From positions 1 through 27,726 of the forward strand of contig JBHIAT010000030.1 in NCBI GenBank assembly GCA_046758705.1: a DNA stretch of 27,726 bases, given 5' to 3'. How positions within the stretch are numbered: position 1 is the stretch's first letter; the number at the start of each line of letters is the position of its first letter. Made by a program: the position numbers and the translations under genes. This DNA is from Candidatus Bipolaricaulia bacterium. GTDB taxonomy: Bacteria > Bipolaricaulota > Bipolaricaulia > JBHIAT01. A model generated the notes under the pieces. That model did not search any database and was not told the origin of the DNA. It was given only the letters and a program-made list of their open reading frames with translations. Positions 15,169 through 23,882 of the stretch are shown in pieces.

Positions 15169-16164
15169 TCAATAGGCGAAGATCGCGATCAGGCCGAACG
15201 CCATCCCCAGGATCCAGAACCGGACCACAATCTGCGATTCGCTCCACTCGAAGTTCGGCAACAGATACGGATAGTCGACCCCTTCCGCTCGCTCGAAGTG
15301 GTGATGGAGCGGACTCACCTTGAAGACACGTTTTCCGAACAGCTTGTAGCTCATCACCTGAACGATCACCGACAGCGTCTCGACTACCAGAACTCCGCCC
15401 ACCACCAACAGCAGAAGTTCGGTACCCGTCAGGATCGCTAACGCTCCCACGAACCCGCCCAAAGCAAACGAGCCGGTATCCCCCAAGAACACCTGGGCCG
15501 GGTGGAAGTTAAACCACAGGAACCCAAGCAAGATCGAGACCATCACGATGATCGGCCCAAGCAGGTCGATCTCCCCTTGCAAGTAGACGAACATCGCATA
15601 GACCGACAGGATGATGATCGACGTTCCAGCCGCCAGCCCATCCAGCCCATCGGTCAGGTTCATGCCGTTGGTGGTGCTGAGCAACACCAGGATCACCAGG
15701 CCCAGGTACAGATAGGGAGACAGCACCAACTCCACATCCACGAACGGGACGAGGACCGGCCGACTCAGGAACAGATCTAGACGGAGCCCAAGGAAAAACA
15801 GGGCGGCGACTGCGATCTGGAGCACGAACTTCTGTCGTACCCCAAGCCCGAGCGACCGACCCCGTGACAGGCTCAGCAGATCGTCGACCAATCCGATCGC
15901 ACCATACCCCAGGGTTGCAAACAGGACCAACACAGATTTCAACGAAACACCGGCTGTATAGGAGCCCACGATCAGGACGACGAACACGAGTAGAACCACC
16001 GCTCCACCCATCGTCGGCGTTCCGCGCTTGTACTCATGGATCTTCGGTCCGTATTCACGGATATGCTGACCGAGATGTGCACGTCGCATCCACCGGATAA
16101 AATAGGGGATGAGCAGGACGGTCAGAATGAACCCCAGGCCCCCCAGGCCGAAATAAAGCCTGAT
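15169..16164 (-). CDS. mraY: Phospho-N-acetylmuramoyl-pentapeptide transferase; start inferred at ATC 16164
   Basis: KRGTPTMGG, GLVDD, NLTDGLDGL, FLGDTGS, PLHHHFE; first TM helix lies upstream of ATG 16089. Confidence 0.95.
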   Translation of the reverse strand: MRLYFGLGGLGFILTVLLIPYFIRWMRRAHLGQHIREYGPKIHEYKRGTPTMGGAVVLLVFVVLIVGSYTAGVSLKSVLVLFATLGYGAIGLVDDLLSLSRGRSLGLGVRQKFVLQIAVAALFFLGLRLDLFLSRPVLVPFVDVELVLSPYLYLGLVILVLLSTTNGMNLTDGLDGLAAGTSIIILSVYAMFVYLQGEIDLLGPIIVMVSILLGFLWFNFHPAQVFLGDTGSFALGGFVGALAILTGTELLLLVVGGVLVVETLSVIVQVMSYKLFGKRVFKVSPLHHHFERAEGVDYPYLLPNFEWSESQIVVRFWILGMAFGLIAIFAY

Positions 16165-16223
16165 CTTACCGTACCTCCCTCCTTCCAGGTTTCAGATATT
16201 CCTGATGCTATCCCCTCGTATCT

Positions 16224-18188
16224 CTATTCGACGAGGGTGGTTCCCGGCTTTGTCTCCTGAACCTGATCTGCTTCCGGCTTCTCCACTGGCTCCGGCTGCT
16301 GGATCGTGATCACCTGAGTCTCTTCGCCGAACAGCACGTAGCCGTCGATCTTTAGCTTCTGTATCGTCCCAGGTTGCAAACTATCGGGGTCTTCATCCCC
16401 TTCATCCCTGTTCTCATCGTCCTCGTCCTCGTCCTTGTCCTTGTCATCTTTGGAGAGCCCGATGAACTTGACCGTCAGCTGATCGTTGCTGTTGATTTCC
16501 TCGATCGCCTTAATGAGCTCTTCCAGGCTTTCGAACGTCTCCAGCTCCTCCTCCTCCTCATCGTTCTGGAACTGCTTGCCGCCGAATGCCTGGACGGTCA
16601 ACCGCGTGACGTCGGTATCCTCTGGGATTTTGAGTGTCCCTTCCTTGACCACGACCTCATCACGGTACGGCTTCAAAGCCACCTGGTAATTGACCAAATC
16701 TCCGGGGGCATAGGTCTCCCGATCGAACTCCAGGGAACGGATCTCCATCGCCTTGAGCTCGCTGCTCACCTCGATATCCACGTTGATCTCCCGCAGCTCG
16801 GGATCGTTGAACTCGTTGAACTCCAGGATATTGACCACCTGAGCGATCTGAATCGGGGCGGTGACCGCGATGTCACGGACGCTCAGGAAGACATCCCGTC
16901 GTTCCACGTCCCTCGGCAGACCGTCCCCCGATATCCGATAGCGCACCTCCAGCACCCCCGGTCCGATCCGGTTGAGGGTGGAATCGATCGTCTCCAGGGC
17001 AACTGACAATACCAGCAACGCGGCCAGGCGTTGCTCTTTGATCGTCTGAACCTCGAACTGCTGACTGGTGCTCAAGTCATCGTCGCTGATCGTGATTTGG
17101 ACCTGGACGCTCTCTGGTTCGACGCTGAGTGCACCGGCGATTCCCTGGAATCGGTCCTCCAAGATGGCTCCCAACGGCTCTCCAGCGATGCCCAGTTTGA
17201 ACGGAGCTTGAAGGCTGTTCACCGTGTCAGAGATGCGGGCCGTGGTGAGAAAGAAGTCGGAATCCCCGTTGAACAGGAAACTGTGACCGAAGGCCAGGAT
17301 CTTATCACTCTCCCGATAGGTCACCGTGCCGATCGCGGTGATGCTCACATCCCCATGGGTCAACTGGACCCCGAGCGGACTCCCCGGGACGATCTCTGTC
17401 GCATCGGAGTCGAAGCCTGTTGCACTTGCACTCGCCGACCCGATCCGATAGAAGCTGAGGTCGTAGCGGCCCAGCCCCTGTTCAAGATCGGTCGAGAAAC
17501 TCGGTGAGAAACCGGGCAAGCGGATCCCTGATCGCGCCTCTAACAGCTGAGGATCCATCTTCTGCACGCCGTCCAACCCCTCGATCAACAATTGCAGGGC
17601 GCGTTCACCAAGCCCGGCGACCGAGACAGGCGTGCTGATTTGCCTGAATCGGTTCTTGATGACATCGTTGCCGTGAAGATCTCCCGAATCGAGCCCTGTT
17701 GATTCTTGCCCTGGTTCCTGTTTCTCCGGTTCGCGATCCATCTCCACCTTATCTGCAACTGGCCCCAGCAGCTCCAGCATTACCTCAATCGGGGTGACCA
17801 GTCCGATCGGATCATCACTGTCGTCCCAGTTGGCGGCGCGACTGAGCGCACCGATCAACTTGCCGTCAATATAGACCGGGCTGCCGCTCATCCCTTGAGC
17901 AATCCCGCCGGCCCGATCGATGACATCGCCCCGAACCCGAACCACGATGAAGTCGTTCAACGTCTTGGGGTTATCCAGAATGTCGATGATCTCGACCTCA
18001 AACTCCTCGATGAGGTTCCCCTGAATGACCGTCTTGCCGATCCCCACCATTCCCGGTGTGAGCTGATCCATGAACAGAAACGCATTCCGTTTCCCTTCGA
18101 CAGCGAGCCCCGGCGTTGCGACAACGATCATCATCAGGAGAACGAGCAAGACCCCAAAGACTCTTTGTATAGGGTTAAGATTCCTCAT
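16224..18188 (-). CDS. Secreted SpoIVB-type peptidase S55 domain protein
   Basis: Signal peptide; GIAQGMSGSPVYIDGKLIGA; IGTVTY...AFGH; acidic C-terminal tracts. Confidence 0.9.
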   Translation of the reverse strand: MRNLNPIQRVFGVLLVLLMMIVVATPGLAVEGKRNAFLFMDQLTPGMVGIGKTVIQGNLIEEFEVEIIDILDNPKTLNDFIVVRVRGDVIDRAGGIAQGMSGSPVYIDGKLIGALSRAANWDDSDDPIGLVTPIEVMLELLGPVADKVEMDREPEKQEPGQESTGLDSGDLHGNDVIKNRFRQISTPVSVAGLGERALQLLIEGLDGVQKMDPQLLEARSGIRLPGFSPSFSTDLEQGLGRYDLSFYRIGSASASATGFDSDATEIVPGSPLGVQLTHGDVSITAIGTVTYRESDKILAFGHSFLFNGDSDFFLTTARISDTVNSLQAPFKLGIAGEPLGAILEDRFQGIAGALSVEPESVQVQITISDDDLSTSQQFEVQTIKEQRLAALLVLSVALETIDSTLNRIGPGVLEVRYRISGDGLPRDVERRDVFLSVRDIAVTAPIQIAQVVNILEFNEFNDPELREINVDIEVSSELKAMEIRSLEFDRETYAPGDLVNYQVALKPYRDEVVVKEGTLKIPEDTDVTRLTVQAFGGKQFQNDEEEEELETFESLEELIKAIEEINSNDQLTVKFIGLSKDDKDKDEDEDDENRDEGDEDPDSLQPGTIQKLKIDGYVLFGEETQVITIQQPEPVEKPEADQVQETKPGTTLVE

Positions 18189-19339
18189 TATCTTGCCTTC
18201 CTGATCTTCTCGACCTCGGCTACGATCATCTCAGCCCCGACCTCCATGCCTTCAACAGGCTGAATCCCTCTCTCTTGAAGCATTCGTCTCCCTTCTGCTT
18301 CGTTCGTACCGGTGAGTCGGACGACCAGCGGTTGCTCAGCTTTCAGCGCTTGGTTCGCCTCTATCAGGCCTTGGGCCACCGCATCGCCGCGGGTGATTCC
18401 CCCGAAGATATTGATGAACACGCCATCCACCTGCTCGTCTGAGATCACGATCTCCAGGGCTTCTCGCATCTGGGCGGCATCGGCCCCACCCCCGATGTCC
18501 AAGAAATTGGCCGGACGGCCGCCCTTCAGCTGTACCAGGTCGAGGGTTGCCATCACCAGGCCTGCCCCGTTTCCAATTATTCCGATATTTCCATCGAGTT
18601 TGACATATCCCAGGCCGACCTCCTCGGCGCGACGTTCCTCAGGGCTATGGTGCACAGCAGCGGACCGATACCGTTGAAGTTCCGGGTGTCGGTAGAGCGC
18701 ATCATCATCGACGATAAACTTCGCGTCGAGCGCGATCAGCCCGCCGTCCAGGCCGACCGCCAGCGGGTTGATCTCAACCAAGTTGGCCTCATACTGTATG
18801 AATGCGTGATAGAGTCGCTCTATGATATCCGCAAGCGGTTTGAATCGCTCCCGATCGATACCGGCACCAAGCAGTAGATTCCGGATTTGATAAGCATGGA
18901 TTCCTTCGAGCGGCTCCACATGGAACTTGAACACGGCCTCTGGATGCTGGACGGCGAGCTCTTCGATGTCGATCCCTCCCTCTGCGGAGAAGATCACCAC
19001 CGGTTTCCGGGTGGAGCGATCGAGCGTTATTCCCAGGTAGAGTTCATCCTGGATGCCGATCGCCTGTTCCACCAGAACCTCTTCAACCGGTACTCCTTTT
19101 AACATGCTCCCCAGAAGCTTCCTGGCATGTTCCTCCGCCGTCTCGGGTCCTTGGGCGAACTGGATCCCTCCTGCCTTACCCCGGCCTCCCACTACGACTT
19201 GCGCCTTGACGACCACCGGCGTGCCGTACGATCGGGCGATCCGCGCGACCTCCTCCGGTGAGTTCGCCACCTTCCCTTCCTGAACGGGTATCCCTGACGA
19301 AGCGAACAGCTCTTTTCCCTGATATTCCAACAGTCTCAT
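18188..19339 (-). CDS. sucC: Succinate-CoA ligase (ADP-forming) beta subunit
   Basis: MRLLEYQGK, KAQVVVGGRGKAGG, EINPL, GNGAGLVMATLD, ANFLDIGGGA, NIFGGI. Confidence 0.96.
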   Translation of the reverse strand: MRLLEYQGKELFASSGIPVQEGKVANSPEEVARIARSYGTPVVVKAQVVVGGRGKAGGIQFAQGPETAEEHARKLLGSMLKGVPVEEVLVEQAIGIQDELYLGITLDRSTRKPVVIFSAEGGIDIEELAVQHPEAVFKFHVEPLEGIHAYQIRNLLLGAGIDRERFKPLADIIERLYHAFIQYEANLVEINPLAVGLDGGLIALDAKFIVDDDALYRHPELQRYRSAAVHHSPEERRAEEVGLGYVKLDGNIGIIGNGAGLVMATLDLVQLKGGRPANFLDIGGGADAAQMREALEIVISDEQVDGVFINIFGGITRGDAVAQGLIEANQALKAEQPLVVRLTGTNEAEGRRMLQERGIQPVEGMEVGAEMIVAEVEKIRKAR

Positions 19340-19381
19340 CGCACTTTGTCCAACCTCTTTACTATTATTCCCAGCTCACGG

Positions 19382-19675
19382 TCATGGGGACGACCGCTCA
19401 TCGTCGTCTTGCCCCGCCTCGCGATCTTCATCCGGCATCGCACCTGCTGCCTCTGCTTCCCCTGACGCTGAGGTCACTTGGGACTCGACCTGGGGGAGAT
19501 CTTTGTCTATCTCAGACGTCGCCTCAAGTTCCTGTCCGAATTCATTCTTAGCCTTCTGAAACTCGCGGACCCCCCGTCCCAGGGATTGGGCGATCTTGGG
19601 AAGTCGATCTGCACCGAAGATAACTAGGGCGATGACCATGATAATCAGCAACTCAGGAACACCGATGCCAAACAT
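19382..19675 (-). CDS. tatA: Twin-arginine translocase TatA/E
   Basis: MFGIGVPELLIIMVIALVIFGADRLPKIAQSLGRGVREF. Confidence 0.95.
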   Translation of the reverse strand: MFGIGVPELLIIMVIALVIFGADRLPKIAQSLGRGVREFQKAKNEFGQELEATSEIDKDLPQVESQVTSASGEAEAAGAMPDEDREAGQDDDERSSP

Positions 19676-19738
19676 TACATTCCTTCACCTCCTGCCCTGC
19701 TAATGACATCTTGGCTGTAAGGCTCGTTCTACACTCTA

Positions 19739-19768
19739 AAGTTAGCAGAAACGGGCGGGCGACGTCAA
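19739..19768 (-). promoter_or_regulatory. Putative sigma70 promoter for the tatA-sucC run
   Basis: TTGACG-18 nt-TAACTT with TG extension. Confidence 0.45.
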
Positions 19769-19805
19769 GGCTCAACGGGGGATCGTGGAGCCGTTTGAGG
19801 TTCGA

Positions 19806-20333
19806 CTACCGTTCCTTCTCCAGCTCATGGACGCCATGACCCAACACCGGCAGAATCAATCGCTCCATGGCCAGCTCGACCGCGGCTTTAGATCCTGGAA
19901 GTGAGAACACCAGCATCCTCCCGATCGCTCCGGCGATTGCTCGGGACAAGATTGCGAACGGACCGATCTCCTCGTAGGAGAGCCATCTGAACAGTTCTCC
20001 GAACCCCGTCAGTTCTTTATCCAATAGGCTGCTCACCGTCTCATAGGTGACATCCCGCTTTGATAAACCGGTCCCCCCGTTCAAGATCGCGACCTGAACC
20101 TCCTGCTGATGAGTGAGCTGTTTCAGCAGATTGCGGATCTCATCGGCCTCGTCCGGGACAATCCGGTAATCGATCACCCGATGCCCCTCCGCTTCGAGCC
20201 TGTCTCGGATCAACCGGCCGCTGGCATCGGACGCTTCGTCTCGGGTATCGCTGACGGTGACCACCCAACAGTTGATTGACTCGACCTCCAGATACCCATG
20301 CTCATGTCGATGCTCATACTGATCGTCGCCGAT
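19806..20333 (-). CDS. moaB: Molybdenum cofactor biosynthesis MoaB/MogA family protein; start inferred at ATC 20333
   Basis: VTVSDTR, D.SG, NGGTGLSKRDVT, GFGELFR, SRA.AG, SLPGS; His-rich N-terminal extension upstream of 20264. Confidence 0.92.
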   Translation of the reverse strand: MGDDQYEHRHEHGYLEVESINCWVVTVSDTRDEASDASGRLIRDRLEAEGHRVIDYRIVPDEADEIRNLLKQLTHQQEVQVAILNGGTGLSKRDVTYETVSSLLDKELTGFGELFRWLSYEEIGPFAILSRAIAGAIGRMLVFSLPGSKAAVELAMERLILPVLGHGVHELEKER

Positions 20334-20435
20334 CTTCGCTCACCTCTCATCCTGATATCCAACGCCTCGATTCTGAACTCGATGGTAGCAGAATATGACG
20401 CTTTTTTCCAAGGCCTGACTGCGAGGCAAGCTGGT

Positions 20436-20464
20436 TTGACAAGCGATTGGAGAGTTGATAAAAT
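20436..20464 (+). promoter_or_regulatory. Sigma70 promoter for tRNA-Ile
   Basis: TTGACA-17 nt-TAAAAT with TG extension, 11 nt before the tRNA. Confidence 0.8.
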
Positions 20465-20475
20465 AATCGGGCGAT

Positions 20476-20550
20476 GGGTCTATAGCTCAGGGGAAGAGCG
20501 CACGCCTGATAAGCGTGAGGTCCCTGGTTCAAATCCAGGTAGGCCCACCA
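20476..20550 (+). tRNA. tRNA-Ile(GAT), intact copy (attL side of island)
   Basis: Acceptor GGGTCTA/TAGGCCC, anticodon arm CACGC-CT-GAT-AA-GCGTG, GGTTCAAATCC, encoded CCA. Confidence 0.97.
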
Positions 20551-23387: not shown

Positions 23388-23882
23388 CTATGGCTCGGGA
23401 AGCACTGAGGCGTGATCGTGGACGATCAACCACTTCCCTTCAATCTTCTGCAAGACCATTGTAAATCTCCCGGAGAACCCTTCTCCTGGTCCCTCTGGGA
23501 TTTGGAGATTATAAACAAAGTGTCCGGTCAAGATCACCACATCGTCTCCGAGCAACGTGAGTTGTGGTTGTCTAGGAGAGAGGGAGACACTCCCTGGGGG
23601 AAGCTGGGCAAAGAAACCAAGGGTTGCCTTCCAGAACTCCCCTATCTGGCTCCAGCCATCCAGACGAAAGGGCTCGATATCGGAAAAGGCGGTTGCCTCC
23701 TCGGACTGCCACCACAGGGAGGCAAACAGCTCGAAATCCCCGGTATTGAAAGCCTGGATAAATTGTTGTGCGACAGCCAGCACTTCATCCCCCACTGTGT
23801 CTGCAAGGGTCACAGGTGTCACCGAAAACCAAAACCCCAAGGCGATGGTGAACACCAGCCCCCATGTAATTCGCTTCCTCAT
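23388..23882 (-). CDS. Secreted NTF2-like/SnoaL-like (YybH/DUF4440-type) protein, copy A
   Basis: Signal peptide ending TLA; AFNTGD, GWSQI, GRFTMVLQKIEGKWLIVHDHAS; AAGGAGGT SD. Confidence 0.88.
   Translation of the reverse strand: MRKRITWGLVFTIALGFWFSVTPVTLADTVGDEVLAVAQQFIQAFNTGDFELFASLWWQSEEATAFSDIEPFRLDGWSQIGEFWKATLGFFAQLPPGSVSLSPRQPQLTLLGDDVVILTGHFVYNLQIPEGPGEGFSGRFTMVLQKIEGKWLIVHDHASVLPEP

Follow-up and report, generated by a model that had tools for sequence, protein, structure and literature searches.

In the reading frame of moaB on the minus strand of this DNA, the first canonical initiation codon, a GTG, lies inside a conserved strand of the encoded protein. This raises the question of which codon is used to initiate the translation of moaB. 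The window, i.e., the whole 27,726-nt stretch of DNA that was analysed, is contig C30 of a 3.70-Mb metagenome-assembled genome (MAG; 319 contigs, 57% G+C, 93.9% complete, 4.7% contaminated, depth about 10x) of an uncultured vent bacterium. The features of the locus are as follows.

19806–20333, minus strand: predicted moaB coding sequence read from an ATC, 175 amino acids plus the stop codon at 19806–19808.
20331–20333, minus strand: proposed ATC start codon of moaB, 6 nt after GAGGTGA.
20340–20346, minus strand: extended Shine-Dalgarno (SD) sequence GAGGTGA of moaB, a 7-nt match to the SD consensus.
20342–20340, minus strand: in-frame TGA inside GAGGTGA, which closes the moaB frame upstream.
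20262–20264, minus strand: GTG, the first canonical codon of moaB, within the conserved CWVVTVSD strand.
20274–20289, minus strand: alternative site of moaB, consisting of GGAGG (20289–20285), 8 nt and a second ATC (20276–20274).

After the TGA, the moaB frame reads GCG AAG ATC (20333) GGC GAC GAT CAG TAT GAG CAT CGA CAT GAG CAT ... TGT TGG GTG (20264), and neither ATG, GTG nor TTG occurs in it between the TGA at 20342–20340 and GTG 20264. The ATC at 20333 is the sole codon upstream of a conserved His that differs from ATG by a third-position mismatch; the adjoining AAG has a middle-position mismatch. Its spacing is 7 nt from GAGGTG and 9 nt in the GGAGG register, and the latter value is inside the range observed for the ATG starts of this genome (about 4–10, with a peak at 7). 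For GTG 20264, no SD sequence was found at a working distance, the GGAGG being located 20 nt upstream. In a preliminary description of the locus, the GTG had been placed inside the first conserved strand, the ATC 7 nt after GAGGTG, and an in-frame TGA over the SD sequence, and our reading of the minus strand agrees with it. The same description had likened the AAG-ATC context to the aagATG starts at 23882, 24447, and 25882. These contexts are real, but AAG is merely common before starts (29 of 594 SD-led ATG starts). The leader of moaB, 23 codons from the ATC to the GTG, is coding-like by codon usage, with a score of 6.9, or about 0.30 per codon, versus a genome coding mean of 0.23. In the database, this moaB is entered as a 123-aa protein that begins at an internal GTG picked by the gene caller, in place of 175 aa. 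A frameshift into the moaB frame from the ATG at 20350 was rejected, there being no slippery site and only a poor SD sequence for this ATG; as for the out-of-frame ATGs located downstream of it, these would abolish the His motif.

In a promoter scan, moaB had no sigma-70-like site. On the plus strand of the window, at 20436–20464, there is a near-consensus promoter (TTGACA, 17 nt, and TAAAAT with TG; 11 of 12 matches), just upstream of tRNA-Ile(GAU) (20476–20550, plus strand) and divergent from moaB. On the minus strand, the segment 20613–21129 contains a small gene for a ParE-type toxin (PF05016), which overlaps a 96-aa open reading frame without a family; the two probably constitute a type II toxin-antitoxin pair.

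The 175-aa product showed scores of 108.1 bits with Pfam MoCF_biosynth (PF00994; cut-off, 26.6; residues 24–166) and 110.8 bits with NCBIfam TIGR00177 (cut-off, 85.35). Since its score with the equivalog model TIGR02667, which represents proteobacterial MoaB, was under the cut-off (155 versus 222.4 bits), the product is assigned to the MoaB/MogA family and not to this equivalog. In an alignment of 26 sequences, the GGTG motif (G86, G87, T88, and G89) and 32 further columns were invariant. The homologues examined were 25 proteins from a collection of 5.8 billion proteins, the nearest database MoaB being 65% identical, and 11 from closer relatives of the same class; a metagenome scan with MoaB gave no relative. 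In both sets, the homologues begin 10 to 25 residues ahead of the conserved first-strand Cys, and a conserved His is present in most of them (at least 70%) approximately 10 residues before this Cys; this His corresponds to His15 of the ATC-started protein. The short His-containing N-terminal extension that had previously been ascribed to MoaB proteins was thus observed in the 25 database homologues and in the 11 class relatives. A start at GTG 20264 would delete the conserved His and half of the first β-strand. Position 4 of the TIGR02667 profile, a model with which the protein scores below the cut-off, aligns at residue 19, upstream of the GTG (residue 24), and the Pfam domain begins exactly at the GTG residue. 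Therefore, the case for the extension rests on the alignments, in which the homology extends upstream of the first canonical codon.

Initiation at the second ATC (20276) would give a 156-aa MoaB with two residues ahead of the conserved Cys and without the His extension, and the start would still be non-canonical. This ATC is preceded by a perfect GGAGG at a spacing of 8, inside the optimum of ATG starts; however, the GGAGG belongs to Leu-Glu-Val codons and may have arisen by chance. One database homologue is annotated with just 5 residues before the Cys, whereas the stretch of 19 codons from one ATC to the other scores as coding and the shorter product would lack the His conserved in at least 70% of the homologues. 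Use of the second ATC is considered unlikely. On the basis of the sequence, moaB probably initiates at ATC 20333, and it is highly probable that one or other of the two ATCs is used, i.e., that initiation is non-canonical.

A similar arrangement was found at mraY, the second case in the window.

15169–16164, minus strand: mraY read from ATC 16164, 331 amino acids plus the stop codon.
16174–16184, minus strand: SD sequence of mraY, AAGGAGGGAGG, in which GGAGG (16178–16174) is followed by 9 nt and the ATC.

The product scored 274.8 bits with TIGR00445, the mraY equivalog (cut-off, 192). Position 1 of this model aligns at residue 15, and the first canonical ATG (16089) corresponds to residue 26, past the first membrane helix. 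The claim that mraY is a second case was therefore borne out, as an SD-spaced ATC is present and no canonical start is available upstream of the conserved N-terminal sequence. This is the only clear copy of mraY in the MAG, the other match being a weak paralogue (E = 4.5e-11). For comparison, 40 relatives, all from the same class, were used, and the best loci were read for each gene in 29 relatives apiece (for moaB, in the 11 closer relatives). In all 29 relatives, mraY has a canonical codon (ATG, GTG, or TTG) upstream of the first membrane helix.

In total, eight well-supported SD-led ATC or ATT starts were found in the MAG. The ATC starts are those of moaB, mraY, infC, yggS, and a gene for an MGMT-endonuclease V fusion, and the ATT starts are those of rpsT, yebC, and rng. 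In addition, there are three ATA candidates, which encode exported or membrane proteins, one of them a MauG-like di-haem peroxidase.

G000:C15:9496: ATT start of rpsT.
G000:C20 6811–8052, minus strand: rng (RNase G/E family), ATT start.
C31:15032–16177: ATA candidate.
C43:15520–17445: ATA candidate.
C21:3466–4377, minus strand: ATA candidate.

At rpsT, GAGGTGAT is followed by 6 nt and ATT CCC AAT ATC AAG, which corresponds to the family N-terminus Met-Pro-Asn-Ile-Lys, and positions 2–83 of the NCBIfam S20 model align to residues 2–83. The ATT of yebC stands at Met1 of the N-terminus M-[AS]-GHSKW. At infC, TAAGGAGG is followed by 9 nt and the ATC, and positions 3–164 of the model align to residues 3–166. 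For yggS and rng, full-length models begin well upstream of the first canonical codons. The SD matches of moaB, rpsT, and infC are 7 to 9 nt long. The genes that parallel moaB in this genome are each present in a single copy (one match in their own genome). As regards the three ATA candidates, the signal peptide or membrane anchor would be complete only from the SD-spaced ATA (15032, 15520, and 4377, respectively). Four other genes were rejected as cases of this kind by sequence reading or NCBIfam models: glmM begins at TTG, hisH probably begins at TTG, and both dnaK and the gene at C5:6452–7783 begin at ATG.

Genome-wide scans were performed on 3171 genes called with a codon-usage model, the leader being defined as the stretch between the upstream stop codon and the first canonical codon. 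Two crude tests showed no enrichment of SD sequences before ATC codons in leaders (8 of 310 versus a background of 3.2%, and 17 of 553 versus 3.5%). These tests are weak because only about ten true sites would be present among some 500 ATC leader codons. A coding-like leader of at least 10 codons was found in 63 of 3025 genes, and 60 of these, i.e., all except the three with the lowest scores, were taken into a Pfam scan. For 13 of the 60, a Pfam domain begins ahead of the first canonical codon. Four of the 13 have an SD-spaced ATC or ATT (yggS, yebC, rpsT, and the MGMT-endonuclease V gene); a frameshift in a CGCGCGCG run accounts for one (Meth_synt_2, contig C38); five resemble fragments or remnants of mobile elements (GH114 at a contig end, TnpB, DUF234, PIN, and MFS); and three are without explanation (resolvase, DUF4384, and DUF1349).

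Two of the loci seen in the course of these scans deserve description in their own right. The Meth_synt_2 (MetE-like) gene at G000:C38:4916–5989 is split by a one-base frame change in the CGCGCGCG run, and shortly before it the other frame contains an ATG with a GGAGG SD sequence; the frame change reflects either a slip in the sequencing or a genuine frameshift. In a serine recombinase gene at G000:C196:2429–3307, the resolvase domain begins 48 codons upstream of the first canonical start, and no SD-spaced near-cognate codon was found there. Possibly, it is a mobile-element gene that has decayed or is initiated in an unusual way.

In a formal test, leader codons with an SD match of at least 5 nt at a spacing of 5 to 11 were examined for a coding-like stretch down to the first canonical codon. 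Such a stretch follows 15 of 41 ATH codons (ATC, ATT, or ATA) but only 94 of the 1074 remaining codons (Fisher p = 2e-6). When the neighbours of the ATH hits were dropped, the value for the other codons was 76 of 1022 (p = 3e-7). The excess of ATH over other codons is significant and amounts to approximately 11 sites; by codon, the proportions were 8 of 17 for ATC, 6 of 16 for ATA, and 1 of 8 for ATT. SD-led ATH starts are thus those of about a dozen of roughly 3000 genes (approximately 0.3–0.4%). In the preliminary description, a genome-wide scan for SD-led ATC had been proposed and routine AUC initiation had been suggested. The scan did yield the eight ATC and ATT starts, the three ATA candidates, and the ATH excess, but no enrichment of ATC in the crude tests, and initiation of this kind is not routine.

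The start codons of these genes were then compared with those in the class. At the SD-spaced site of infC, only ATC, ATT, or ATA was found in 27 of the 29 relatives, and the remaining two were ambiguous. The start of rpsT was ATT in 23, ATA in 4, ATC in 1, and ATG in 1 of the 29 relatives, i.e., ATH in 28, almost always approximately 6 nt behind a GAGGTGA-type motif. For rng, an SD-spaced ATH was present in at least 11 of the 29, and ATG in 7, mostly of one family. On the other hand, yebC starts with ATG in 28 relatives and with GTG in 1. The yebC motif was also found at 74 of 80 metagenomic loci, where the start was ATG in 67, GTG in 4, TTG in 3, and ATH in none; nothing closer than 61% identity was obtained in this metagenome scan with YebC. 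All 11 closer relatives use ATG, TTG, or GTG at moaB, so the ATC is not conserved there. At yggS, a canonical codon was found upstream of the aligned part at every locus, and several of these alignments begin too far inside the protein to fix the start. The predicted ATH starts of infC, rpsT, and often rng are therefore a class trait, whereas the putative ATC and ATT starts of moaB, mraY, yebC, and yggS are changes in this lineage, because the relatives use canonical starts at these genes. Of the lineage-wide AUC initiation suggested earlier, the part that concerns infC, rpsT, and often rng stands, with ATH in place of AUC alone, but ATH at moaB, mraY, yebC, and yggS was seen only in this genome. 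A pattern scan (SD, 6 nt, ATN, and Pro-Asn-Ile/Met codons) found three S20-like sequences among 80 of 108 stretches; all three begin with ATG, and the scan is uninformative on rpsT outside the class. A literature search found no report of a class-wide non-AUG start of rpsT.

The canonical starts of the relatives could also mean that the moaB start was simply lost by a change of ATG to ATC, so that the gene is decaying or gives only a truncated product from GTG 20264 or from the internal GTG (123 aa). moaB is not essential, and the database entry corresponds to the 123-aa call. However, the frame is intact over 175 codons with all of the invariant residues of the family, and GTG 20264 has no SD sequence and would cut the first β-strand. 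Moreover, mraY, rpsT, and infC, none of which can be dead, have the same layout in their sole copies. Logan contigs were available from four runs, all belonging to one hydrothermal-vent study. The fourth sample contains a strain approximately 96–98% identical to the MAG, with no listed change at the ATC of moaB or mraY; its contig for 20134–20550 has one unlisted difference, the position of which is not placeable. The changes in this strain include a Gly-to-Ala substitution at 16139 and a Val-to-Ile substitution at 20261 in moaB, and the conservative nature of the latter argues against decay. Loss of the moaB start is accordingly regarded as quite improbable.

In order to examine the initiation machinery, IF3, 16S rRNA, and the tRNA(CAU) genes were inspected. 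IF3 departs from the 85% consensus of 29 relatives at just three columns, none of them striking: the linker has one additional residue, a Lys is replaced by Arg, and, near the end, a Pro by Ser. A near-cognate start of infC is the arrangement known from AUU autoregulation in E. coli. The ATC at infC would be useful only if IF3 discriminates in this organism. The 3' tail of 16S rRNA (anti-SD) is the usual GATCACCTCCTTTCT, and the GGATTAGATACCC, GGAATCG, and TGTACACACCGCCCGTC stretches are kept. The 16S rRNA matches the P-site motifs at 785–797 (A790), 1337–1343 (G1338/A1339/U1341), and 1391–1407 (C1400), in E. coli numbering. It departs from the motifs at one base (1344) in 1337–1353, at one base in 907–926, and at three in the helix-31 stretch. 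The helix-31 loop variant also occurs in four relatives and is therefore not specific to this genome; several other loop variants are found among the relatives. Most class genomes depart from GATGCAACGCG, the E. coli-type helix-31 loop, the commonest forms being GATGGTAAGCG (7 genomes) and GATGATAAGCG (5 genomes, this one among them). As this loop contacts the P-site tRNA, one may speculate that it bears on the tolerance of ATH in the class.

Four tRNA(CAU) genes were found, namely a canonical initiator (contig C194), an elongator, a tRNA-Ile2 type, and an extra initiator-like gene.

G000:C109:10792–10866: extra initiator-like tRNA(CAU) gene.

When compared with the initiator pattern (C1xA72, A11:U24, and three G-C pairs), the C109 tRNA has the C1xA72 mismatch, U11:A24, and an anticodon stem of A-U/G-C/C-G, i.e., one of the three G-C pairs. 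A search for this type of tRNA gave a match in 30 of the 40 relatives, and all 11 loci that were extracted are canonical initiators; no counterpart of the C109 tRNA was seen among the 41 genomes compared. The neighbours of the gene gave no clue to its origin, and it may be foreign, the contamination of the MAG being 4.7%. No initiator-like tRNA with a GAU anticodon was found in the genome, and the sole tRNA-Ile(GAU), beside moaB, is ordinary.

These components bear on the proposal that start-codon discrimination is relaxed in the lineage through an altered IF3, initiator tRNA, or 16S P site, so that AUC or AUH initiation is routine. At least four lineage-specific ATH starts where the relatives are canonical, the significant ATH excess, and the extra C109 tRNA, which keeps C1xA72 with one of the three stem G-C pairs, would agree with it. 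However, only approximately 0.3–0.4% of the genes are involved, IF3 is ordinary and its gene keeps the ATC start, and the anti-SD tail and the stretches at 790, 1338–1341, and 1400 match the usual motifs. In addition, four relatives have the same helix-31 variant, the genome contains a canonical initiator tRNA, and the C109 tRNA may be of foreign origin. Apart from the C109 tRNA, no sign of altered fidelity factors was seen among those checked. The relaxed IF3 or initiator discrimination offered in the preliminary description was thus not supported, and we regard it as improbable.

An assembly or sequencing error that conceals a true ATG is conceivable, given that the MAG has a depth of about 10x and that three of the four runs may be the assembly source, but it is most improbable, as the Logan contigs from three samples (depth about 9–11) showed 0 differences over 15900–20520 with both ATCs reproduced, and such errors would need to have struck the start codons of eight or more genes, spread over seven contigs, and to have yielded both C and T.

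The initiation proposed for moaB can be compared with known systems. In E. coli, the AUU starts of infC and pcnB are held down by IF3. They are near-cognate AUH codons behind an SD sequence, and infC of this genome uses ATC likewise. According to one study, these two are the only confirmed non-canonical starts in E. coli; AUA, AUC, AUU, and CUG gave 1–2% of the AUG level with a first plasmid and 0.02–3% with other constructs, and GFP started with AUC carried an N-terminal Met (bioRxiv 10.1101/063800). Unlike these two genes, moaB would have AUC at a cofactor-biosynthesis gene, and about a dozen genes are involved here. In S. aureus, a recent report describes four AUU or AUA starts (infC, ccpN, cvfC1, and citZ), all with an extended SD sequence and at approximately 10% of the AUG level (bioRxiv 10.1101/2025.06.19.660503). 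These are weak AUH starts behind an extended SD sequence, which the 7- to 9-nt SD sequences of moaB, rpsT, and infC resemble. Unlike the moaB ATC, which was found computationally and is not conserved in class relatives, the S. aureus starts are conserved in related species and were mapped with ribosome profiling and reporters. In Streptomyces, a GTC start of sigR is reported to be repressed by IF3 (PMC5472188). It is likewise a non-canonical start that serves as an IF3-sensitive control point, but with another codon and at a regulator gene. SD-led ATH use in the present genome exceeds that of the two quoted model species, E. coli and S. aureus, at well under 1% of genes. Judged by its sequence, the moaB site fits the SD-led near-cognate kind in every feature save conservation among relatives.

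If moaB initiates at ATC 20333, the 30S subunit would be positioned by the 7-nt pairing of GAGGUGA with the ...UCACCUC tail of 16S rRNA, and this pairing would put AUC in the P site at a spacing that is also used for the AUG starts of this genome. The ordinary initiator tRNA (anticodon CAU) would read AUC with a third-position mismatch, so that the protein would begin with (f)Met. Initiation at AUC would be weak and held down by IF3, and it would thereby constitute a built-in attenuator. For moaB, mraY, yebC, and yggS, point changes of ATG to ATH are the simplest origin, and such changes may have been tolerated because of the strong SD sequence. A broader and doubtful, though possible, reading is that the lineage widened the class-wide IF3-sensitive AUH set (infC, rpsT, and rng) to mraY, yebC, yggS, moaB, and several exported proteins, possibly through a machinery that accepts AUH better, the candidate cause being the C109 tRNA(CAU). 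If this were true, free IF3 would jointly tune the translation of genes for a ribosomal protein, for an RNase, and for the synthesis of the cell wall and of a cofactor.

Gene callers truncate genes with ATH starts, as is evident from the moaB entry (123 versus 175 aa), and mraY would lose its first membrane helix in this way. MAGs of this class therefore need start calling that takes ATH into account, at least for infC, rpsT, and rng. The genes described here also provide a list with which to test, outside model organisms, the way in which expression is set by the identity of the start codon and by extended SD pairing. Two findings deserve attention above the others, namely the near-fixed ATH of rpsT across the class and the unusual initiator-like tRNA. 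Since ATH is almost fixed at rpsT (28 of 29 relatives) and frequent at rng, these results suggest that, in this class, components of the ribosome and of RNA decay have a conserved control point in the form of weak, IF3-sensitive starts.
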